DNA of 64,000 bases, from positions 32,487-96,486 of IMG/VR virus record IMGVR_UViG_3300005821_000002; one strand, given 5' to 3'. Every line of letters begins with the position of its first letter. The stretch's first letter is position 1. The notes under the pieces were generated by a model. The model made no database searches and was not told the origin of the DNA. It saw only the letters and a program-made list of their open reading frames with translations. Of this stretch, positions 5,702 through 19,109 are shown piece by piece. The position numbers and the translations under genes are program-made. The stretch is from a virus.

Positions 5702-5776
5702 GGTGCTTGCAGAGGGGCTCGAACCCCCGACCTTCGGTTTAAAAGACCGTTGCTCTTCCGGCTGAGCTATGCAAGC
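5702..5776 (-). tRNA. tRNA-Lys(UUU)
   Basis: Cloverleaf, loop CT-TTT-AA; ends ACC-T. Confidence 0.93.
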
Positions 5777-6246
5777 TAAAAAACTAATTGAGTACCTATC
5801 TCTAGGTCCATTGTATACCAAGCGCTGTAGAACCATGGTGCCTTCTTCCCCGTAAAGTCTATTCTACGTGATGGGAAGATAACTTCCACACCACTCAACT
5901 GTGCTCTACATTCTTTTGCACCTAACTTTGTTATAGGTAGCAACATGCACCAAGGTTTTCCCAACTCATTTGCTCTACGTAGAAACTTCTTAGCTATAGA
6001 GAATGGTGGGTTGGTTACAATGATATCATAGGATGGTGGTTCATCAACAAGAAAATCTCCATCCCATTCTACTACATCGTAACCACCTGCGATAAGGTGT
6101 GCTATCAACACACCAGAACCAGGTGCACAATCCCACAGCTTTTTGTCTGTGGGTAGATACGGAACCAATACCTCCAAAGCCTCTGGAGGAGTCCATATAT
6201 CGTCGTAACTTCCTCTTTTACTGTAATCCTTCAATACTTCTAACAT
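5776..6246 (-). CDS. small DNA adenine methyltransferase-like protein
   Basis: WDCAPGSG SAM motif; DIIVTNPPF. Confidence 0.8.
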   Translation of the reverse strand: MLEVLKDYSKRGSYDDIWTPPEALEVLVPYLPTDKKLWDCAPGSGVLIAHLIAGGYDVVEWDGDFLVDEPPSYDIIVTNPPFSIAKKFLRRANELGKPWCMLLPITKLGAKECRAQLSGVEVIFPSRRIDFTGKKAPWFYSAWYTMDLEIGTQLVF

Positions 6247-6322
6247 GGTGCCACCGGTAGGACTCGAACCTACAACCTTTGGTTTAAGAGACCACTGCTC
6301 TCACCCGTTGAGCTACGGAGGC
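6246..6322 (-). tRNA. tRNA-Lys(CUU)
   Basis: Loop CT-CTT-AA; encoded CCA. Confidence 0.93.
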
Positions 6323-6326
6323 ATAA

Positions 6327-6415
6327 GACGGCGACGTTCCCACAACGCCTTCGTGCAACCTAAGTGAGTGGCCTACTCACAGCTACACAGTTGGATTCGA
6401 ACCAACATCTCCGTC
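6327..6415 (-). ncRNA. circularly permuted tRNA-like RNA (Y-RNA/YrlA-like topology)
   Basis: Closing stem GACGG/CCGTC, T-arm GTTGG-TTCGAAT-CCAAC at the 5' side, capped acceptor-like stem, then D-arm-like hairpin. Confidence 0.6.
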
Positions 6416-6416
6416 A

Positions 6417-6492
6417 GGTGGGTCTGGCTGGGCTCGAACCAGCGACCTCTTTCTTGTAAGGAAAGCGCTCTAACCAACTGAGCTACACACCC
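6417..6492 (-). tRNA. tRNA-Val(UAC)
   Basis: CTTTC-CTTACAA-GAAAG; ends ACC-T. Confidence 0.94.
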
Positions 6493-6493
6493 A

Positions 6494-6685
6494 TTATCCT
6501 GTTAATCTACCTTTACCATCATTCTGATAGAAACCCTTACCCTTAAATACGACGTTAGGAGGATTGAACACTCTCCTAATACTTATTTTACCACATTCAG
6601 GGCATTTTGTCAAGCCCAAATCCAAGTGTTCTTCGGATATGAACTCATACAAACAATCTTCACATTTGTAATCATATATTCCCAT
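6494..6685 (-). CDS. FmdB-family zinc-ribbon protein
   Basis: YDYKCEDC...CPECG...VFKGKGFY. Confidence 0.85.
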   Translation of the reverse strand: MGIYDYKCEDCLYEFISEEHLDLGLTKCPECGKISIRRVFNPPNVVFKGKGFYQNDGKGRLTG

Positions 6686-6696
6686 AGTTACCTCAA

Positions 6697-6770
6697 GGAG
6701 CGAGTAGGTGGATTTGAACCACCGACATTCTGCTTGGAAGGCAGACGTTCTACCACTGAACTATACCCGC
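6697..6770 (-). tRNA. tRNA-Gly(UCC)
   Basis: TCTGC-CTTCCAA-GCAGA; U73; ends TCC-T. Confidence 0.94.
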
Positions 6771-6773
6771 TAA

Positions 6774-6846
6774 GGTGGGAACACAGGGAATCGAACCCTG
6801 CTCGTCGGCTTGAAAGGCCGGTGTCCTGCCGATAGACGATGCTCCC
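6774..6846 (-). tRNA. tRNA-Glu(UUC)
   Basis: Loop CT-TTC-AA; ends ACC-T. Confidence 0.92.
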
Positions 6847-7029
6847 TTATGAAACCATACTCTGAATGCTATCTAATAAGTCATTCAGTTCATCGTACTT
6901 GTCTATTAAACTTTCTACAGCCTCATATGCATTTTTATCATCTACTATAAAATCTACTGGTGAGCCTGGTCCATTTAATAAATCTACGATATCTTGTAGT
7001 TCTGCTTCTATACTTATACCCATAATCAT
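6847..7029 (-). CDS. small acidic hypothetical protein
   Basis: AGGAG RBS; fills inter-tRNA gap. Confidence 0.6.
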   Translation of the reverse strand: MIMGISIEAELQDIVDLLNGPGSPVDFIVDDKNAYEAVESLIDKYDELNDLLDSIQSMVS

Positions 7030-7039
7030 ACTCCTTTTA

Positions 7040-7113
7040 GGTGATTCTACGGAGATTTGAACTCCGGTCTGTACTTTGAGAGAGTACTGTCCTAACCACT
7101 AGACGATAGAACC
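7040..7113 (-). tRNA. tRNA-Glu(CUC)
   Basis: GTACT-CTCTCAA-AGTAC; ends ACC-T. Confidence 0.92.
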
Positions 7114-7115
7114 AA

Positions 7116-7189
7116 GGTAGGCCCCCCACGAATTGAACGTGGCTCCTTCCCCTTATAAGAGGGATGCTTCCCCGATCAGCTTGAGGCCC
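7116..7189 (-). tRNA. tRNA-Ile(UAU)
   Basis: TCCCT-CTTATAA-GGGGA; ends ACC-T. Confidence 0.85.
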
Positions 7190-7457
7190 ATCGTGTTTCA
7201 TTATTTTCTACTCGTTTTATCCAATTACAATTTGCACAAAGTAGTTGATAGTCTTCACTTTCTCCCCTACAAATTCTACGAGCTATATAATCGGAACTAT
7301 GAGCAAGTATTTCTTTACCACCGCCACCTTTTATATGATCTATCTGTAATGCTCTTGGATCGGAAAATCCACATCTTGTGCATATACCACCCAAAAGCTC
7401 TATCGCTTTCTGTCTATTTTTTCGACGGTATTCTCTACCCCATTGTTTTTTATTCAT
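7176..7457 (-). CDS. HNH endonuclease (free-standing, homing type)
   Basis: CTRCG...LQIDHI...YQLLCANCN; start moved to ATG just after tRNA-Ile(GAU). Confidence 0.85.
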   Translation of the reverse strand: MNKKQWGREYRRKNRQKAIELLGGICTRCGFSDPRALQIDHIKGGGGKEILAHSSDYIARRICRGESEDYQLLCANCNWIKRVENNETRWASS

Positions 7458-7458
7458 A

Positions 7459-7533
7459 GGTGGACCAAAATGGAGTCGAACCATTGGCCTTCCCCTTATC
7501 AGAGGGATGCTCTAACCACTGAGCTACTGGTCC
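7459..7533 (-). tRNA. tRNA-Ile(GAU)
   Basis: TCCCT-CTGATAA-GGGGA; ends ACC-T. Confidence 0.94.
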
Positions 7534-7944
7534 TTATATTACATGCCATTCAGCTTTCCTTGCTCTCTTAGCTGTCCAACATCCTCCAGACTTTATATGA
7601 TCTGAAGTGTGACAGTGATAACAGTAATCAAACTTCATTCCTTTATATCCTTCTGGATAATCTGCTACCACAATACAATGAACAATGTCAGATGCTCTAG
7701 CTATCTTTAGATTTCTCTGCTTAAAACCACCTTCCCACCGTGGTATAGCTGGAAGATAAATCTCTTTTTCCAATCCTAGTTTATTGGCCTCTTCCTCAGC
7801 CCATATATCTATACCACCAAGATGACATCCACCACTGACAAGAATATCATCAGGAGACAATAGAGAACGTATTATTTCTCTTGCCTTTGCCTCTGTTTCA
7901 GGCGTAAACTTTCTTGCCTCATGACCAACTATTCCTACTCTCAT
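7534..7944 (-). CDS. SLOG-superfamily (DprA/YspA-like) nucleotide-binding protein
   Basis: VGIVG...LVSGGCHLGGIDIWAE...RNLKIA...SGG. Confidence 0.7.
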   Translation of the reverse strand: MRVGIVGHEARKFTPETEAKAREIIRSLLSPDDILVSGGCHLGGIDIWAEEEANKLGLEKEIYLPAIPRWEGGFKQRNLKIARASDIVHCIVVADYPEGYKGMKFDYCYHCHTSDHIKSGGCWTAKRARKAEWHVI

Positions 7945-7957
7945 TGTATCTCCTTAA

Positions 7958-8031
7958 GGCACGGGTACTCGGATTCGAACCAAGACCATAGGCTTAGAAC
8001 ACCTTTATGCTATCCTTTACACCATACCCGC
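7958..8031 (-). tRNA. tRNA-Arg(UCU)
   Basis: Loop GT-TCT-AA; A20 and G73; ends GCC-T. Confidence 0.85.
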
Positions 8032-8034
8032 TTA

Positions 8035-8108
8035 GGTGTGTCCAGTGGGGATTGAACCCACGACCCTCTGCTCTTCAGACAGATGCTCTACCACTGAGCT
8101 ACAGACAC
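8035..8108 (-). tRNA. tRNA-Phe(GAA)
   Basis: TCTGT-CTGAAGA-GCAGA; ends ACC-T. Confidence 0.94.
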
Positions 8109-8116
8109 ATAAAACC

Positions 8117-8187
8117 GAGGGCTTATGCTTATCATCTAGAATGTGACCACTCAGTTTACTGCTGGAAGTCAGACAGCAGAAGCCCTC
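8117..8187 (-). ncRNA. orphan structured RNA
   Basis: Terminal stem GAGGGCTT/AAGCCCTC plus CTGCTG/CAGCAG hairpin. Confidence 0.4.
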
Positions 8188-8188
8188 T

Positions 8189-8274
8189 TGGTGCCAACAG
8201 CAGGGATCGAACCTGCACTCCCGAAGGAAACTGGTTTTAAGCCAGTCGTGTCTGCCAAATTCCACCATGTCGGC
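8189..8274 (-). tRNA. tRNA-Leu(UAA)
   Basis: ACTGG-CTTAAAA-CCAGT; long variable arm; CCA. Confidence 0.95.
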
Positions 8275-8276
8275 AT

Positions 8277-8365
8277 AAGGTGAGAAGGGTTTACTCTGAG
8301 TATTCGTCTGACTATCGGACTTTCCCCTAACAGGTATAGTCTCCTGCGTAAAGCGTTCTCACCTT
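8277..8365 (-). ncRNA. orphan structured RNA with potential pseudoknot
   Basis: 10-bp terminal stem AAGGTGAGAA/TTCTCACCTT, TTTAC/GTAAA, GCAGG/CCTGT, GACTAT/ATAGTC. Confidence 0.5.
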
Positions 8366-8367
8366 AA

Positions 8368-8443
8368 GGTAGCGGGGAGGGGATTCGAACCCCTGGTTTC
8401 CAGCTTATGAGGCTAGTGACTTGGGCCGCTAGTCTACCCCGCA
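8368..8443 (-). tRNA. tRNA-Met(CAU), initiator-like
   Basis: CAT anticodon; U1xU72 mismatch; A11-U24; ends ACC-T. Confidence 0.9.
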
Positions 8444-8501
8444 ATGATGGACACCTACATCGAACCACAAGGAGCGACCCTGCTTACGTTTCAGTGTCCA
8501 A

Positions 8502-8577
8502 GGTCGGAATGACAGGATTTGAACCTGTGGCCCCTCGGACCCAAACCGAGTGCTCTTCCAAGCTGAGCTACACTCCG
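8502..8577 (-). tRNA. tRNA-Pro(UGG)
   Basis: CTCGG-TTTGGGT-CCGAG; ends ACC-T. Confidence 0.95.
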
Positions 8578-8681
8578 ATGTACTTTTTTGATAGAGCAGA
8601 AAGACATAATAAAAACTGCTTGGGCCTAACTCATACAAGTCAGGGTTCCACCACTTGTTTTTTAGAGAAACAAGAAACTCA

Positions 8682-8754
8682 GGTGGAGCTTCAGAGGATC
8701 GAACTCTGATAACAGCATTGCAAGTGCTGGGTAATACCGTTATACGAAAGCCCC
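8682..8754 (-). tRNA. tRNA-Ala(UGC)
   Basis: G3-U70; CAGCA-CTTGCAA-TGCTG; ends ACC-T. Confidence 0.94.
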
Positions 8755-8757
8755 AAA

Positions 8758-8841
8758 GGTACCGAAGGTGAGAGTCGAACTCACAAGCCCGTGGGCACTG
8801 ACTTCTAAGGCCAGCGTGTTTGCCATTTTCACCACTTCGGC
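8758..8841 (-). tRNA. tRNA-Leu(UAG)
   Basis: CTGGC-CTTAGAA-GTCAG; long variable arm; ends ACC-T. Confidence 0.94.
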
Positions 8842-8844
8842 ATG

Positions 8845-8922
8845 TTGAGAACTAGGGTGCACCACGGAATCTAACCGTCTCTGCTAGGCTGTCGCCCACT
8901 AACAAGTCGTGCTAGTTCTCAA
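8845..8922 (-). ncRNA. orphan structured RNA with T-loop-like hairpin
   Basis: 11-bp terminal stem TTGAGAACTAG/CTAGTTCTCAA; ACGG-TTAGATT-CCGT. Confidence 0.5.
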
Positions 8923-8996
8923 GGTGGATGTTAGAAGAATCGAACTTCTCTCCGTCGGTTTACAGCCGAGTGCCGTCCCCAGACGACCCAACATCC
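8923..8996 (-). tRNA. tRNA-Tyr(GUA), non-canonical (short variable loop)
   Basis: 7-bp acceptor, TCGG-CTGTAAA-CCGA, T-arm AGAAG-TTCGATT-CTTCT; ends ACC-T. Confidence 0.8.
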
Positions 8997-9008
8997 AATG
9001 TTTTCCTT

Positions 9009-9037
9009 ATTATATCACATATTACTAGAAATGTCAA
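9009..9037 (-). promoter_or_regulatory. consensus sigma70 promoter inside tRNA array
   Basis: TTGACA-17-TATAAT with extended -10 TG. Confidence 0.9.
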
Positions 9038-9064
9038 GCCCAATATTAGTGCCATATCATTCCT

Positions 9065-9315
9065 TGGTGGAGATGGGGGGAGTTGAACCCCCGTCCAAAT
9101 AGTCTTGGTTCACATGTTACTGGCGTTCCGTTTACTGTCGGTCAGTCTTACTGGGTGTAACTAGGTGTAGCTTCTACCGCTACTGGGAGACTGAATAAAG
9201 TTTCAGCCAGACTCACTCTGCTAAAGAGTGCTGATGCTAAACTATTATCGTTTGCATTTGTGTTAGGGTGCCAGAATGCTTAGCGTCCTCTATCTGTCGA
9301 AGCCATTTCATCCCC
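9065..9315 (-). ncRNA. ssrA: tmRNA (compact, ~251 nt)
   Basis: 5' GGGGATGAAATGGCTTCGAC; G3-U acceptor pair; 3' GGACGGGGGTTCAACTCCCCCCATCTCCACCA; resume codon GCA AAC GAT (AND...). Confidence 0.93.
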
Positions 9316-9317
9316 AA

Positions 9318-9391
9318 GGAGCACCTAAGAGGATTCGAACCTCCAACTCTTGGTCCGTAGCCAAGCGGTTTATCCGTTAGCCTACAGGTGC
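9318..9391 (-). tRNA. tRNA-Arg(ACG)
   Basis: CTTGG-CTACGGA-CCAAG; ends TCC-T. Confidence 0.94.
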
Positions 9392-9394
9392 TTA

Positions 9395-9470
9395 GGGGCC
9401 CATGATGAGAATCGAACTCATAACCTAGCGATTACAAAACGCTTGCTCTGCCTAATTGAGCTACACGGGC
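9395..9470 (-). tRNA. tRNA-Thr(UGU)
   Basis: Loop TT-TGT-AA; ends CCC-T. Confidence 0.92.
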
Positions 9471-9473
9471 TTA

Positions 9474-9560
9474 GGCGGAATGTGTAGGATTCGAACCTAC
9501 GTGGGTGTTACCCCAACTCCCTTAGCAGGGGAGCACTTTAAACCACTCAGTCAACATTCC
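9474..9560 (-). tRNA. tRNA-Ser(GCU)
   Basis: CTCCC-CTGCTAA-GGGAG; long variable arm; ends GCC-T. Confidence 0.95.
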
Positions 9561-9568
9561 GTAATACT

Positions 9569-9802
9569 CTATCCAGTTGAACGAACAAATGTAATTACAT
9601 TATCCGGTATATCAGCTGGATGTTCATACGATTTATTAGAGCGTGTGCGGTGAGTGAAAGGGAAGAACCCAGTGTCACTCCTACCGATACTCACTCCTCT
9701 AAACTTACCACCCTGTTGTGGATATGTACCTTCTCCCACATCAAGGTTATCTGGTGCTTTTTCTACTAGTTTTACACCACCAACAAGACTTTCTTCTGTC
9801 AT
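9569..9802 (-). CDS. hypothetical protein
   Basis: Fills gap; YTHRxRSxxY-like motif. Confidence 0.55.
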   Translation of the reverse strand: MTEESLVGGVKLVEKAPDNLDVGEGTYPQQGGKFRGVSIGRSDTGFFPFTHRTRSNKSYEHPADIPDNVITFVRSTG

Positions 9803-9805
9803 ATA

Positions 9806-10015
9806 TCACCAATTCTTCCAGTTACATATACTTTCCCAATGTAATAATCCTCTACGATGAGGGTCTCTCCAAGCACGACGACGAGCTTTACTCAAACGTC
9901 GTTTGTAGTAACGACCCTCTCCTCTACTACCCCATCTACAACAAATGCTTCCATTTACTACTTGAATTTTCTTACCAAACTCTTTCCATGTTCTACGGTA
10001 ATTCTCTTTATGCAT
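9806..10015 (-). CDS. small Arg/Lys/Trp-rich protein (69 aa)
   Basis: Start moved to ATG at 10015, directly after the RNase P RNA 3' end. Confidence 0.55.
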   Translation of the reverse strand: MHKENYRRTWKEFGKKIQVVNGSICCRWGSRGEGRYYKRRLSKARRRAWRDPHRRGLLHWESICNWKNW

Positions 10016-10210
10016 GACAACTCCGTAACCAGGATTCTGTTTTATCCCTACATCCATCTATGCCACAACCACACCCTTAGCCCTGCTCACCAGCTAGGTA
10101 AATTTGTGTTGCTCCCTCGGTAGTATAACGGGTTTCCCCTTCCACCTTAAGCAGAGGAGTCCTGAGTTTCCTCTGACGGCATGAAGCCATCAGCGTAGGG
10201 TCAAGTTGTC
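10016..10210 (-). ncRNA. rnpB: miniature RNase P RNA (catalytic domain, S-domain largely deleted)
   Basis: CR-I-like GAGGAAACTCAGGACTCC, GGAGCAA, CR-IV-like TAGATGGAT, CR-V-like AACAGAATCCTGGTTA; P1-P7 and P15-P17 pairable. Confidence 0.88.
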
Positions 10211-10211
10211 A

Positions 10212-10286
10212 TGGAGGCAAGAGTGGGAATCGAACCCACCACTCGACGTTTTGCAGACGCCACCCTAACCAATCGGGATTCTCGCC
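10212..10286 (-). tRNA. tRNA-Cys(GCA)
   Basis: GGCGT-CTGCAAA-ACGTC; U73; CCA. Confidence 0.92.
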
Positions 10287-10952
10287 CTATTCAAAGTACG
10301 GTAGCCAATAATATAATACTTTATCAGCATATACAGGCCCACCAAAGTATAAACAAACATCGGCATTCAAGCTTGTCCAACCACAATTGTATGCAGCTAA
10401 AGCTCTGTGCATATCCTTCTCAGGATTTTCTTCTTCATTGTTAATGTTAGCATTTAACATATACATGCCCTGCCAAATATTCCATCTTGGTTGCCAAAGA
10501 TATTCTTCTGCCAGTGTCCACGGCTTCACAGCTATCTGCATAAGACCGATGGTACTATACCCATCATCCGACATCTCATTTGGGTTGCAAGCACTTTCCT
10601 GAGCCATAACAGCAAGTACAATATTAGGATCAATGGGAAACTCATCATACCACCCTTCAACAAGGGGTCGATAATATTCACATAACCTTACTACAATTTC
10701 AGCTGTTACTTCTTCTCCGGTTGGTCGTGGAGTTGATGTTTTACTCGGCACAACCGTTGGTACTTTTTCTGGTGTTGGTATTGATAGTGGTTCTACTATT
10801 CGCGGCGGATACTCTGTTGAAGTTACCACCGGTGTCGGAGTTATTGTGGGAAGTTCAGGTTCAGGTATATCATTAGGTATACTATATATCCCACACATAA
10901 CGCTGATTACTAGCATAACCACAAGAAAATTCTTGCTAGATGATTTCAGCAA
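10287..10952 (-). CDS. membrane-anchored lytic transglycosylase (SLT domain)
   Basis: N-terminal TM, Pro/Thr linker, AVMAQES, GLMQI, ALAAYNCG. Confidence 0.9.
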   Translation of the reverse strand: MLKSSSKNFLVVMLVISVMCGIYSIPNDIPEPELPTITPTPVVTSTEYPPRIVEPLSIPTPEKVPTVVPSKTSTPRPTGEEVTAEIVVRLCEYYRPLVEGWYDEFPIDPNIVLAVMAQESACNPNEMSDDGYSTIGLMQIAVKPWTLAEEYLWQPRWNIWQGMYMLNANINNEEENPEKDMHRALAAYNCGWTSLNADVCLYFGGPVYADKVLYYWLPYFE

Positions 10953-10990
10953 ATATTCCCCCTATATTATATTGTCCGTACCATACCAAA

Positions 10991-11080
10991 GGCGGAGAGT
11001 GCAGGGGTCAAACCTGCAAGGCAGTTACGCTCGGCGGGTTTCAAATCCGCTGCCGTCGTCAACTATCGGCTTGACTCTCC
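10991..11080 (-). tRNA. tRNA-Ser(UGA)
   Basis: Loop TT-TGA-AA; long variable arm; G73; ends GCC-T. Confidence 0.87.
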
Positions 11081-11120
11081 GAAATGTGGGGAAGTTAGGT
11101 TCCGACCTCCCTTCCCAATA

Positions 11121-11204
11121 GGTGCCGATAACAGGAGTCGAACCTGTACGCTGTTAGGCGGTTGCTTTTGAGGCAACTGTGTCTACCTCTTCCACCATAT
11201 CGGC
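11121..11204 (-). tRNA. tRNA-Leu(CAA)
   Basis: GTTGC-CTCAAAA-GCAAC; ends ACC-T. Confidence 0.94.
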
Positions 11205-11296
11205 AATTGTCTTACCGTACCCATAGGCAATACTAGGCTTGTAGGCCCTATGGGTATTGCTCAATCATGAGGTATATAGTCATGAAAGAGTGCCTA

Positions 11297-11374
11297 GGCG
11301 GTCTTGAAGGGATTTGAACCCTCGATCTCTTGCTTGACAGGCAAGCGTGTTAGGCCGGACTACACCACAAGACC
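11297..11374 (-). tRNA. tRNA-Asp(GUC)
   Basis: CTTGC-CTGTCAA-GCAAG; G73; ends GCC-T. Confidence 0.95.
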
Positions 11375-11378
11375 ATAA

Positions 11379-11530
11379 GATGTATCATAGCTGGTTTCCC
11401 CACCCAGCACCCGTACAAACCTGACCATTTTTCGGTTTTTTAGTCTGACCGATACAGACTTGTGACCTTTCTGAAAAGGTTGTCAGGATGAATTCTAAGC
11501 CCAAGTGTTTCAGACACTTTATGATACATC
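11379..11530 (-). ncRNA. orphan multibranch structured RNA (~152 nt)
   Basis: 11-bp terminal stem GATGTATCATA/TATGATACATC enclosing five internal helices. Confidence 0.6.
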
Positions 11531-11531
11531 A

Positions 11532-11607
11532 TGGGGTGTCCAGAGGGGTTCGAACCCTCGAATGTGGATTCACAGTCCAGTGTTTTTCCGACTAAACTAT
11601 GGACACC
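11532..11607 (-). tRNA. tRNA-His(GUG)
   Basis: G-1:C73 pair; loop CT-GTG-AA; CCA. Confidence 0.93.
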
Positions 11608-11612
11608 ATGTA

Positions 11613-11776
11613 TGTACCGGTACCCCTCTTACTCACCGTATTACGATGATATAACTACCTCTGGAGACCCAGTAGGGGCAGGTAGGCGGTATTTTCTCTT
11701 CCTTATTCCTAGCTGGTCTTAATCAGAATAAGGCGTAGTCTCCCACGTTCTGTCCATGCCAGCGGACACCGGTACA
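11613..11776 (-). ncRNA. orphan pseudoknotted structured RNA (~164 nt)
   Basis: 9-bp terminal stem TGTACCGGT/ACCGGTACA plus several internal complementary pairs. Confidence 0.55.
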
Positions 11777-11777
11777 A

Positions 11778-11850
11778 GGTAGCTAAGGGAGGATTCGAAC
11801 CGCCATCCTAGGCTTCAAAGGCCCATGTCCTGCCGTTAGACGACTTAGCT
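11778..11850 (-). tRNA. tRNA-Gln(UUG)
   Basis: TGGGC-CTTTGAA-GCCTA; ends ACC-T. Confidence 0.92.
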
Positions 11851-11853
11851 ATA

Positions 11854-11926
11854 GGTTGTAGAGGAAGGATTCGAACCTCCATTGACTGATTCAGAGTCAG
11901 CAGTACTGCCGTTATACTACTCTACA
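11854..11926 (-). tRNA. tRNA-Gln(CUG)
   Basis: GCTGA-CTCTGAA-TCAGT; ends ACC-T. Confidence 0.92.
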
Positions 11927-11927
11927 A

Positions 11928-12076
11928 GGTAAAGGCGTATTCCAACCCCTTTATTCCGCCTATAAGTCCTGTCTGTATTCACAGCGTTTTCCTTGAAACT
12001 AGACCTGACTAGAATTCCAAGGACGTAAGGGGTACAGGACTTGGCTCATAACCTTTCCCCACTCTTTCGAGTGAGA
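11928..12076 (-). ncRNA. orphan structured RNA (~150 nt) ending in ACC-T
   Basis: GAAA hairpin, AAGTCCTGT/ACAGGACTT, CCTTGGAA/TTTCAAGG, AGGCG/CGCCT, ACCCCTT/AAGGGGT. Confidence 0.55.
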
Positions 12077-12077
12077 A

Positions 12078-12150
12078 GGCACGGGATGAAGGATTCGAAC
12101 CTCCTACAGTAACGTTTTGGAGACGCACTCGCTCCCAAGCTGTATCCCGC
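12078..12150 (-). tRNA. tRNA-Trp(CCA), non-canonical reduced D-arm
   Basis: Loop CT-CCA-AA; G73; D-arm only GCT-TGGG-AGC; ends GCC-T. Confidence 0.8.
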
Positions 12151-12155
12151 ATATA

Positions 12156-12230
12156 GGCAGGCAAGACAGGATTCGAACCTGTAACCTTCTCCTTAACAGG
12201 GAGTTGCTCTGCCGATTGAGCTACTCGCCT
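12156..12230 (-). tRNA. tRNA-Asn(GUU)
   Basis: Loop CT-GTT-AA; ends GCC-T. Confidence 0.93.
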
Positions 12231-17241: not shown

Positions 17242-17671
17242 TACTATTCAACCTCTCATGTAACACACGTAACTCATTATGCATCTCAGCCATCTCTGTC
17301 ATGAGTTCGTCCCACGCCTCAAAGTCAAGACATATGATGTGCTTTACACCAGTTCTTGATTTTTCAAACTTCAATACCACGGCTGGAAGTGCTCCATAGT
17401 TTTTCTCAGCTATCTCACGAATACCATCAAACCATGCTTTTTCTATTTTCATTTGCTTTCCGCCGTACCCAACTTTACACTCACCCACAATACCCTTATC
17501 CATGTGTTCATACTTACCAGAGATATCAGGCATGAGTACTGGCATATTTAATATTGTTCCAAGAGCACCAGACATAGCTATTCTACGCCACACATCTGGA
17601 AACTGCTCATTCAATAACTTTACAGAATCTCTCTCCCACCGTGTACCTTTTATTTTCTGTGGGTTAGGCAT
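17234..17671 (-). CDS. Holliday junction resolvase (Hjc-like PD-(D/E)XK)
   Basis: KGTRWER...SGA...PDI...ECK. Confidence 0.8.
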   Translation of the reverse strand: MPNPQKIKGTRWERDSVKLLNEQFPDVWRRIAMSGALGTILNMPVLMPDISGKYEHMDKGIVGECKVGYGGKQMKIEKAWFDGIREIAEKNYGALPAVVLKFEKSRTGVKHIICLDFEAWDELMTEMAEMHNELRVLHERLNSNG

Positions 17672-18990
17672 TATACAAAACTCTCCTCATCCCAACTATC
17701 TAATTTATTATCTGTGATATTTACTGTTGGTCCATCAAATCTCAGTAACGCTATACCAGTTGGTCCATTCCTAGATTTTCTAATCAAAAATTCAAGTGTC
17801 CCTGCAGCTGGTGAGTTAGGAAAATACATCTCATCCCTATACAACCCAATCATAATGTCAGCATCCTCTTCCATATTACCACTCTGGCGTAGGTCTGACA
17901 TCCTGGGTCGCATATCCTCTCTCTTTTCAACTTCACGATTTAACTGTGACAAAATTATAATTGTTATACCCAACTCATTAGCTAATAGCTTGAACGCACG
18001 TGATGCAGCACCGAGTAAATGAACTGATTCAGTTGTTCTATCTACTATCAATTGAATGTAATCAATTCCAACTACTTTTATATCGTATAGCTGATGGTAT
18101 TTACGTATCATAGCTACTATATAATCTACACCTTGTGTAAAATTATTATCTATATAAATTGGTAATTTCTCTACAACTTTCTCAGCCCTTTGTAATGGAC
18201 CAATTTGTTCCTCACTTAAAGTACCCAAACGTATATCTTGTAATGGTACTTGACTAACTATAGATAAAATTCTCTCGTTAATATCATCAGCACTCATTTC
18301 TCTATTAAAGAGTAAGATACCGTTACCCTTCTTGGCGACATTTAATGCTGTCTTTAATAATAACGCTGATTTACCATGTCCGGGCCGAGAACCAATGTAC
18401 CACACTTCACCAGGATTAAATCCGGTTGTAAAATTATCAACTTCTCCCATTCCAGTAGAAATACCCCGTATTCCTGGGTTCTTTCTTCTTTCTAAAATCT
18501 TTAGAATAGTATCAGCAACAGTCTCACTTAATTTAGATACATCTGCTGAAGTTATACCACTCACCATGTTTTCTAACGCAGTATGAAGCTTCGAAATTGT
18601 TTCATTTACAGTACTACTATTTTCAAGTATGTCAGGTATGCTTGCATTTATTTCTAATAATCTACGTGTCTTGTAATCATTCTGTACTTGATTTACAAAC
18701 ATCGCCATATTTTTTACTGGTTGTCTTAAATCCATCAAGACGGTAAGATATGACTCACCGCCTGCTTTTTGTAATTGATTCCTATCTCTAAGCATCTGTC
18801 CAACAATAGCAGGATTTGGTTCTAATCCCTGTAATGAACATTCATGGATAACAGAATAGATAATCCTTTCTGCATCCATGTCAAACATTTCAGGTTTTAA
18901 ATCTTTTGCATAATTATAAACTTCATAACCATTAGCTAAAAAAGTACCCAATACTGCTGAACGTGGACTAAAGGTGTTGATATTCTCCAA
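17671..18990 (-). CDS. dnaB: replicative DNA helicase DnaB
   Basis: SRPGHGKS, IDYIQLI, LSQLNR, SDLRQSGNMEEDAD, KSRNGPTG. Confidence 0.95.
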   Translation of the reverse strand: MENINTFSPRSAVLGTFLANGYEVYNYAKDLKPEMFDMDAERIIYSVIHECSLQGLEPNPAIVGQMLRDRNQLQKAGGESYLTVLMDLRQPVKNMAMFVNQVQNDYKTRRLLEINASIPDILENSSTVNETISKLHTALENMVSGITSADVSKLSETVADTILKILERRKNPGIRGISTGMGEVDNFTTGFNPGEVWYIGSRPGHGKSALLLKTALNVAKKGNGILLFNREMSADDINERILSIVSQVPLQDIRLGTLSEEQIGPLQRAEKVVEKLPIYIDNNFTQGVDYIVAMIRKYHQLYDIKVVGIDYIQLIVDRTTESVHLLGAASRAFKLLANELGITIIILSQLNREVEKREDMRPRMSDLRQSGNMEEDADIMIGLYRDEMYFPNSPAAGTLEFLIRKSRNGPTGIALLRFDGPTVNITDNKLDSWDEESFV

Positions 18991-19021
18991 TGTGTATTCT
19001 CCCTGGTATGGATTCTTTAAA

Positions 19022-19104
19022 GGTGGATGGGGAGGGATCGAACCTCGGCTTCTTCTATGCTAGCAACGTACTATAGCATCTAATAGTCACCAGACTAACC
19101 ATCC
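19022..19104 (-). ncRNA. tRNA-like element with aberrant D and anticodon arms
   Basis: GGATGG/CCATCC acceptor, GAGG-TTCGATC-CCTC T-arm, ends ACC-T; no 7-nt anticodon loop. Confidence 0.6.
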
Positions 19105-19109
19105 AAGTG

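Follow-up and report, generated by a model that had tools for sequence, protein, structure and literature searches.

The tRNA genes of this 96-kb marine-sediment phage, which has a complete DTR genome, mostly end in two templated C's followed by a U. In the window, the 64,000-nucleotide stretch of DNA that was analysed, N73-C-C-T is found in 24 of the 28 tRNA genes and N73-C-C-A in the other four, and full CCA templating is not the rule. The CC-U pattern is real, conserved and selected. Sequence comparisons give about an even chance that N73-C74-C75-U76 serves as a convention, acting in cis, for how the 3' end is matured; a host RNase Z-type enzyme would cut at the U and the host would add the A.

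The RNA operon and its 3' ends

ARAGORN at default settings called 27 tRNA genes on the minus strand at 5702-12230, and the 28th, tRNA-Ser(tga), was found only at a relaxed threshold. N73 was taken as the base after the last acceptor pair, and the Rfam tRNA matches, which stop two bases inside the ARAGORN ends, agree with this register. RF00005 gave 26 matches of 39-75 bits at its gathering threshold (29 bits), and tRNA-Cys scored 41 bits. tRNA-Trp was called by ARAGORN only and the tRNA-Ser(tga) region has a weak Rfam tRNA-Sec match. The features are as follows.

5702-12230, minus strand: RNA operon with 28 tRNA genes, tmRNA, mini RNase P RNA, structured spacers and small ORFs
12156-12230, minus: tRNA-Asn(gtt), ends G-CC-T
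12078-12150, minus: tRNA-Trp(cca), ends G-CC-T
11927-12077, minus: structured non-tRNA spacer RNA (fold z = -3.75), directly precedes tRNA-Gln
11854-11926, minus: tRNA-Gln(ctg), ends A-CC-T
11778-11850, minus: tRNA-Gln(ttg), ends A-CC-T
11532-11606, minus: tRNA-His(gtg), ends C-CCA, exception; CCT in five relatives
11297-11374, minus: tRNA-Asp(gtc), ends G-CC-T
11121-11204, minus: tRNA-Leu(caa), ends A-CC-T
10991-11080, minus: tRNA-Ser(tga), ends G-CC-T; relaxed threshold
10212-10286, minus: tRNA-Cys(gca), ends T-CCA, exception; A76 doubles as the first base of RNase P helix P1
10010-10212, minus: mini type-A RNase P RNA, 203 nt (RF00010, 58.9 bits, E = 1e-17)
9474-9560, minus: tRNA-Ser(gct), ends G-CC-T
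9395-9470, minus: tRNA-Thr(tgt), ends C-CC-T
9318-9391, minus: tRNA-Arg(acg), ends T-CC-T; tmRNA 2 nt further on
9065-9315, minus: tmRNA (Rfam, 77.8 bits), ends A-CCA
8923-8996, minus: tRNA-Tyr(gta), ends A-CC-T
8758-8841, minus: tRNA-Leu(tag), ends A-CC-T
8682-8754, minus: tRNA-Ala(tgc), ends A-CC-T
8502-8577, minus: tRNA-Pro(tgg), ends A-CC-T
8368-8443, minus: tRNA-Met(cat), ends A-CC-T
8189-8274, minus: tRNA-Leu(taa), ends A-CCA, exception
8035-8108, minus: tRNA-Phe(gaa), ends A-CC-T
7958-8031, minus: tRNA-Arg(tct), ends G-CC-T
7459-7533, minus: tRNA-Ile(gat), ends A-CC-T
7116-7189, minus: tRNA-Ile(tat), ends A-CC-T
7040-7113, minus: tRNA-Glu(ctc), ends A-CC-T
6774-6846, minus: tRNA-Glu(ttc), ends A-CC-T
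6697-6770, minus: tRNA-Gly(tcc), ends T-CC-T
6417-6492, minus: tRNA-Val(tac), ends A-CC-T
6246-6322, minus: tRNA-Lys(ctt), ends A-CCA, exception
5702-5776, minus: tRNA-Lys(ttt), ends A-CC-T
19021-19105, minus: tRNA-like element with acceptor, D and T arms and a long anticodon arm, CCU after

The ARAGORN register confirms the count of the first-pass annotation, which had given CC-U in 24 of 28 genes and CCA only in Lys(CUU), Leu(UAA), Cys, His and the tmRNA. Positions 74-75 are CC in all 28 genes, in a genome with 19% C. The spacers are A/T-rich, and many of the trailers between tandem tRNAs consist of 2-5 nt of U/A. The same annotation had assigned CC-U ends to an orphan RNA (11928) and to the tRNA-like element (19022). 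This holds for the spacer RNA, which reads ACC up to the C at 11928 and then U at 11927, but for the element only in one register, since its 3' end, CCAUCCA-CCU, is read as either A-CC-U or C-C-U. The ORFs in the array (SLT transglycosylase, zinc ribbon and a weak HNH) have no relation to the tRNA ends. In the clade, tmRNA tags are long with varied ends (AFA, ALV, VAV), and were not taken as a host signal.

Conservation of the pattern within and beyond the clade

The core clade is a well-supported group of relatives with DnaB proteins 45-84% identical, and 112 of its tRNAs were compared. By DnaB the closest relatives are P0004 (84% identical, 97.7 kb), P0006 and P0007; the tRNA counts come from other contigs. 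Tabulating positions 74-77 in related arrays, as had been proposed at first pass, gave C74 in 112/112 and C75 in 105/112. Position 76 is T in 94, A in 17, G in one and C in none, while N77 is A in 39, T in 39, G in 27 and C in 7, and position 77 onward varies freely. Because G and C are excluded at 76 while 77 is free, the alignments support a role of U76 as a boundary or processing mark. The pattern persists among relatives whose DnaB is only 45-63% identical. No match to the array was found among GenBank phages by megablast, and neither the primase nor DnaB, each used alone as a query against IMG/VR, turned up relatives.

T makes up 31% of the genome, and finding at least 23 T's at position 76 in the 27 genes that ARAGORN calls by default has a probability of 9e-9. 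Restricting this position to A and T still leaves P at 1.6e-4 for the window and 3e-15 for the core clade. The earlier argument that chance would not give U every time was thus borne out (P about 1e-8 for T76). Parts of the array were recovered from two runs labelled metatranscriptomic, as low-depth contigs spanning tRNAs and spacers; they show no alternative letters at position 76 and are uninformative on mature ends. In the core clade U76 outnumbers A76 by about 6:1, though an A would give a finished end. The CCA exceptions vary by genome and are not tied to an isoacceptor, as the Cys, His and Leu(taa) genes that end in CCA in the window end in CCT in relatives. It follows that genes tend to avoid a templated CCA with a trailer behind it.

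Distant relatives have N73-C-U ends, and in their 72 tRNAs the base after C74 is T in 53, A in 18 and G in one. Among 511 tRNAs from unrelated arrays in IMG/VR, 153 have a single templated C, with T as the next base in 109, and in 140 of 174 others T comes straight after N73, so that U comes after whatever part of CCA is templated in 70-80% of cases. Position 74 is mostly U, with A in a few, in Enterococcus and Lactobacillus phages; cyanophage S-CRM01 has U74 or C-U-U, and in proteobacterial phages CCA is simply encoded. The 3'-end conventions of phage arrays thus include full CCA, U74, C-U, C-G and CC-U. Taken with the distant relatives and the unrelated arrays, CC-U is thus an extreme case of a general rule, in which zero, one or two C's are templated and a U comes next; the rule probably extends to bacteria.

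Candidate routes of 3'-end maturation

Under this convention the array would be transcribed as long precursors and the phage RNase P RNA, presumably with host RnpA, would cut the 5' ends, with C74 and C75 able to pair with the GGU of L15 in the ribozyme. The trailer would then be taken off at the U by an RNase Z-like 3' endonuclease from the host. The templated C's would probably stay in the tRNA after this cut, because some RNase Z enzymes cut after a templated C74 and not after N73, and A76 would be supplied by a host CCA-adding or A-adding enzyme. We infer the cutting enzyme, the exact position of the cut and the survival of CC into the mature tRNA.

Several properties of known enzymes are consistent with this route. 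A U on the downstream side of the cut stimulates RNase Z-type enzymes (PMC8943300), and a complete CCA, which is described as a general repressor of RNase Z, blocks them (PMC7479834). The avoidance of CCA plus trailer is what would be expected if CCA blocks the endonuclease. In the B. subtilis substrate, as the work of Pellegrini (2012) is reported in PMC8943300, U73 is followed by U74-A75-A76 and the downstream uracils activate cleavage. The phage genes resemble the CCA-less pre-tRNAs of B. subtilis, as far as these are described in Pellegrini et al. (2003, 2012; PMC7479834, PMC8943300), in that there is no full CCA, a U stands directly after the retained end (24/28 in the window, 94/112 in the core clade), the trailer would be cut away and the end would be completed by a nucleotidyltransferase. 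They differ in that B. subtilis has U at position 74, no part of CCA templated and no C at 74 or 75, whereas all 28 phage genes have CC and the U is U76. C74/C75 are the inhibitory part of CCA for the B. subtilis and eukaryotic RNase Z, which argues against the RNase Z reading, since an enzyme like that of B. subtilis would be expected to process CC-U ends badly. For the model to work, the host would have to supply an enzyme like those of chloroplasts, cyanobacteria or Thermotoga. The RNase Z of Synechocystis reportedly cuts after C74/C75.

Many chloroplast tRNA genes encode part of CCA, and the chloroplast RNase Z cuts after the templated C74 and leaves a nucleotidyltransferase to complete the end (PMC3161902). 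In the phage C74 and C75 are encoded with T in place of A76, but the array has two C's and a U in about 85-100% of genes, unlike the single C in many chloroplast genes. Some T4 tRNAs also lack CCA, and in E. coli they depend on RNase BN/Z for 3' processing and on the CCA enzyme for repair; this nuclease removes ends such as CU and CCU, for which PMC7479834 cites Asha (1983). In a T4-like phage, however, incomplete ends are in the minority (2/11 tRNA genes, both with C74) and most genes encode CCA, whereas CC-U is the rule here. tRNA-NCC is also the natural substrate of the A-adding enzyme in organisms with separate CC- and A-adding enzymes (Aquifex, Synechocystis, Deinococcus and B. halodurans; PMC7014341, PMC11784652). 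Unlike those systems, the phage genome yielded no such enzyme.

The search for CCA- or A-adding enzymes in the rest of the genome, which the first-pass annotation had called for, came up empty: neither PolyA_pol (PF01743) nor NTP_transf_2 (PF01909) had a match at E <= 1 in the complete genome. The complete DTR genome likewise has no match to PF12706, PF00929, PF01138 or PF00825, and no CCA-adding enzyme, RNase Z, RNase PH, RNase T or RnpA was detected by these family searches, whose loose first filter also missed the mini RNase P RNA of the relative G001 and could let a divergent phage enzyme escape. For the host, a search with DnaB in genome contigs found only distant relatives, in MAGs (Brevinema, Bathyarchaeota and another bacterium) and in a Clostridium genome, and the tRNA genes of these have CCA or no pattern and no CC-U.

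What part does the phage ribozyme play? The mini RNase P RNA was identified by cmscan and nhmmer; a separate RF00010 profile scan of genomes missed that of G001, which nhmmer found. The phage RNA does not reach the RF00010 gathering score (100 bits). In the alignment P1-P5, P15 and the L15 GGU are present and about 140 S-domain model positions are missing. Reduced RNase P RNAs with GGU occur in five clade members, the phage and four relatives, always between tRNA-Cys and tRNA-Ser(gct). In bacterial RNase P, pairing of GGU with C74/C75 is well established. The phage RNA is like E. coli M1 RNA, and like the type B RNA whose L15 GGU/C74-C75 pairing is treated in PMC1874595, in that it keeps GGU and all precursors offer C74/C75, so pairing is predicted; it is unlike M1 RNA in that most of the S-domain is gone.

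There is perhaps one chance in a few that CC-U and the mini RNase P RNA belong together as a single maturation system carried by the phage, with N-CC-U precursors, recognition by GGU-CC pairing alone, the U as a uniform cut site and a single host-catalysed A addition. Somewhat less probable is the first-pass proposal that CC is kept chiefly as a handle by which an RNase P without an S-domain, which would not be able to read the tRNA elbow, holds its precursors; U76 would only end the handle, and CC might be removed and re-added. The retained GGU and the fixed place of the gene fit this proposal, as does the frequency of CC, which is found in 88/95 tRNAs of the RNase P-carrying arrays vs 28/107 outside the core clade. 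The CC form is near-fixed only in the monophyletic subclade that carries the mini RNase P RNA. However, the carriers all fall in one clade (100/100 support) and represent one evolutionary event, therefore the co-occurrence that had been put forward as a test is confounded with ancestry and is not independent evidence. Relatives with no detectable RNase P RNA, among them the complete genome G005, keep C74 and then U, and the locus L150 has CC-U in 9/15 tRNAs with no RNase P in its 21 kb. The handle also leaves the preference for U over A and G at position 76 unexplained. C74-U in these relatives and the U rule in unrelated arrays make processing of the 3' end by the host a better explanation of the U than the phage ribozyme. 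Of the idea that U76 is a trimming or cleavage point before A addition, the boundary mark stands and the tie to the phage ribozyme does not fit as well as host processing.

An exonuclease stalling at CC would give the same end product as an RNase Z cut. After cuts by RNase P or RNase E, host 3'-to-5' exonucleases might chew the short U/A trailers, stall at the consecutive C's as E. coli RNase T does, and leave tRNA-NCC to which the CCA enzyme adds A. This is about as doubtful as the ribozyme handle. The trailers of only a few nucleotides suit it, as does the negative outcome of the family searches for a phage nuclease, and RNase T takes only A76 off CCA ends and has been used to select for A-addition (PMC11784652). 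An encoded A76 should be at least as good a stop, yet U is strongly preferred here and proteobacterial phages encode CCA, and a stall specific for C does not predict the exclusion of G at 76 (1/112). RNase T is also not known outside the gammaproteobacteria.

It had also been suggested that CC-U keeps precursors uncharged, or hidden from CCA-targeting defence nucleases, until they are processed; host toxins that recognise CCA ends might be evaded in like manner. This is improbable: the avoidance of encoded A76 is all that speaks for it, any 3' trailer blocks charging whether CCA is encoded or not, the mature tRNA must bear CCA anyway, and no defence or counter-defence gene is linked to the array. 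That the ends have no function and reflect composition bias or hitch-hiking in A/T-rich spacers has almost no probability left, being effectively refuted by the conservation data: the A/T-only tests, the unconstrained position 77 and the persistence of the pattern at low DnaB identity.

Meaning for phage tRNA arrays

No description of near-universal CC-U templating was found in the literature, and Ardell and Hou (2016) tabulate only full CCA templating and do not cover partial ends. Both the templating of part of CCA and the stimulation of RNase Z by U had been described before, therefore CC-U extends existing knowledge and is not a new principle. The annotation of tRNA genes could improve, because current tools pass over these bases or take CC for a damaged CCA. 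If CC-U and the mini RNase P RNA do form one system, the tRNA supply of the phage would be largely independent of host tRNA-processing specificity. In any case the clade lends itself to testing how much an RNase P that lacks the S-domain depends on C74/C75. The bases just past a tRNA gene are, on this evidence, a readable, selected code for making the 3' end, and the conventions used by phage arrays could help to predict the hosts and processing pathways of uncultured phages.

The RNA array and its tRNA 3' ends

The window covers the final 64 kb of a viral contig of 96,486 bp with overlapping ends, which IMG/VR classes as having direct terminal repeats and CheckV scores as 100% complete. The base composition is 38% G+C with 31% T, and several studies have yielded near-identical DNA in metagenomes of marine sediment and the subsurface. 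At 7370-7437 of the window 66 bases are skipped by one contig in each of two DNA runs, which is an indel polymorphism of the natural population. ARAGORN with default settings finds 27 tRNA genes between 5702 and 12230 on the minus strand, and a 28th, tRNA-Ser(tga) at 10991-11080, is seen with a relaxed threshold. The only tRNA-Met(cat), at 8368-8443, has a U1-U72 mismatch atop the acceptor stem that recalls the initiator hallmark. The array also holds two larger RNA genes and open reading frames for an SLT transglycosylase, a zinc ribbon and a weak HNH match, and it is adjoined by replication genes (PolA-type polymerase, DnaB helicase, UvsX-like recombinase, primase and methyltransferases).

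Larger RNA genes of the array
9065-9315, minus strand, tmRNA (Rfam, 77.8 bits)
10010-10212, minus strand, 203-nt RNase P RNA (Rfam, 58.9 bits, E 1e-17, under the gathering score)

The discriminator base N73 was assigned as the base following the last acceptor pair in the ARAGORN bracket output. N73-C-C-T is found in 24 of the 28 tRNA genes and CCA in the other four, Lys-ctt, Leu-taa, Cys and His, exactly as counted in the first-pass annotation. The tmRNA ends in A-CCA, as was claimed there, and of the two further RNAs said to end like the tRNAs, the 151-nt structured spacer preceding tRNA-Gln(ctg) terminates in ...ACC-U and the tRNA-like element near 19022 in CCAUCCA-CCU. The view that U at position 76 did not arise by chance is borne out, as at least 23 T in the 27 default calls has P = 9e-9 at 31% T, and the same count has P = 1.6e-4 when A and T alone are permitted.

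Several other elements lie in or near the array. Structured spacers between tRNA genes occur on the minus strand at 8842-8922, 8275-8367, 8444-8501, 11375-11531 and 11607-11777. Their first bases, from or just past U76, pair with the last bases before the next tRNA in closing stems of 7-11 bp, for example UUGAGAACUAG...CUAGUUCUCAA. Such spacers may act as stalks for processing or be small RNAs in their own right. A few bases past the CC-U of the upstream tRNA, small open reading frames in the array begin with a strong Shine-Dalgarno sequence (7945-7957, 7030-7039 and 6686-6696; for example CC-UUAAGGAGAUACAAUG), so that a cut at the tRNA 3' end would make the 5' end of their mRNA. The tRNA-like element (19021-19105, minus strand) sits between an ssDNA-binding-like gene and dnaB, directly past a terminator-like GC hairpin; it has acceptor, D and T arms and an over-long anticodon arm, with CCU next. 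Tags of the tmRNAs are unusually long at 25-31 residues (window 9065-9315 and the relatives G001, L107, L101 and L110), and their ends vary in the clade (LAFA, PAFA, PALV and VVAV); ARAGORN did not identify the tag of the window tmRNA. Sequences of ~80 nt in two relative loci, L150 (17927-18007) and L095 of genome G005 (9418-9497), give whole-tmRNA scores of 72.8 and 41.2 bits over model positions 1-374, and by these matches may be minimal tmRNA-like RNAs consisting of the tRNA-like domain alone.

Position 76 in relatives and in other phages

Public protein sets contain many relatives of DnaB (17671-18990), and relative loci were fetched from IMG/VR and JGI metagenomes through DnaB alignments. 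The DnaB tree places the window in a core clade with support of 100/100, together with L099, L100, L103, L105, L107/L111 and G001, which are 45-84% identical to the window DnaB. Among the 112 tRNAs of this clade C74 is present in 112 and C75 in 105. Position 76 is T in 94, A in 17, G in one and C in none, while position 77 is A in 39, T in 39, G in 27 and C in 7, and the positions beyond are likewise unconstrained. The CCA exceptions are scattered; Cys, His and Leu-taa, which encode CCA in the window, have CCT in relatives, and CCA is found on other isoacceptors elsewhere. Selection thus favours U at position 76, where A is tolerated and G and C are excluded.

Of 107 tRNAs in the wider DnaB clade, 93 still have C74 and just 28 have C75. 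Where there is a single C, the next base across all sampled relatives is T in 53 genes, A in 18 and G in one (n=72). The 3' end conventions of seven cultured phages follow the host group. All tRNA genes of Vibrio and Caulobacter phages and 9/11 in a T4-like Shigella phage encode CCA, position 74 is mostly U, and A in a few genes, in Enterococcus and Lactobacillus phages, and cyanophage S-CRM01 has U74 or C-U-U. The tRNA genes of Mycobacterium phage Reindeer have mainly N73-C-G (CGA, CGT and CGC), which is a further lineage-specific convention, unlike the U rule. An unrelated set of 511 tRNAs came from IMG/VR arrays picked for at least one CCTT-ending tRNA, with the ascertained genes taken out. 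Here CC is followed by A in 152 genes, T in 17 and G in 15, a single C by T in 109, A in 34 and G in 10, and the trailer begins with T in 140 of the 174 genes without C74. No array of this set was dominated by CC-U, the maximum being 7/17. Templated C's followed by U are therefore a general rule of phage tRNA genes, and near-universal CC-U is particular to the core clade among the arrays sampled.

The mini RNase P RNA

Homologues of the reduced RNase P RNA were found by nhmmer and cmscan in four core-clade relatives (L100, L103, L107 and G001). In these and in the window its gene always lies after tRNA-Cys(gca) and before tRNA-Ser(gct), and in 4/5 arrays the RNA starts 0-3 nt from the CC(U/A) of tRNA-Cys. 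In the window (10010-10286) the first base of helix P1 is A76 of tRNA-Cys.

In bacterial RNase P the GGU motif pairs with C74 and C75. The first-pass annotation proposed that CC is kept as the handle for an RNase P lacking the S-domain. This proposal agrees with the GGU motif being kept in all five mini RNase P RNAs, and with CC in 88/95 tRNAs of the ribozyme arrays versus 28/107 in arrays outside the core clade; however, all carriers belong to one clade, so the co-occurrence is statistically a single event. Two relatives weigh against the RNase P link being necessary. Genome G005 is complete, no RNase P RNA was found in it by cmscan or nhmmer, and it has C74 in 5/5 tRNAs and CC-U in two. Locus L150 has CC-U in 9/15 tRNAs and no ribozyme within its 21 kb.

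Processing of the CC-U ends

The first-pass annotation pointed to CC- and A-adding enzymes, and searches of the complete genome gave no match to class II or class I nucleotidyltransferase domains. RNase Z (Lactamase_B_2), the RNase T family, RNase PH and the RNase P protein also had no match there. Judged by these searches, the host would supply the enzymes that trim the 3' end and add A, as well as the protein of RNase P. The only matches in genome collections were distant relatives lying within MAGs, whose own tRNA genes lack the CC-U pattern.

The most informative feature is that U is preferred to A at position 76. CCA is an anti-determinant in the RNase Z paradigm (PMC7479834), and the enzyme is activated by a downstream uracil according to the summary of Pellegrini 2012 in PMC8943300. 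The avoidance of full CCA together with the requirement for U fits an endonuclease of this kind. CU and CCU ends are substrates of E. coli RNase BN/Z (PMC7479834). Many chloroplast tRNA genes encode partial CCA, and chloroplast RNase Z cuts after templated C74, the end being completed by a nucleotidyltransferase (PMC3161902). In the reading we favour, to which we give even chances, an RNase Z-type endonuclease would cleave the precursor at CC/U, the host would then add A, and C74 and C75 would double as recognition bases for RNase P. This reading requires a host RNase Z unlike the B. subtilis type, because C74 and C75 are inhibitory for the latter. The main rival, less probable but still tenable, is an RNase T-like exonucleolytic trimming that stalls at CC, and RNase T does take off A76 alone (PMC11784652). 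With simple chew-back, however, an encoded A76 should equal or better U76, and it is in fact encoded by phages whose hosts template CCA.

Partial CCA templating, U-stimulated RNase Z, GGU-CC pairing and A-adding enzymes are already known, and chloroplasts and a few T4 tRNAs share partial templating with the core clade. A survey of bacterial CCA templating covers full CCA alone (PMC5143459), and literature searches found no description of such a CC-U viral lineage. The novelty lies in a viral lineage whose near-complete tRNA set has CC followed by U fixed in 85-100% of its genes, beside a reduced RNase P RNA.
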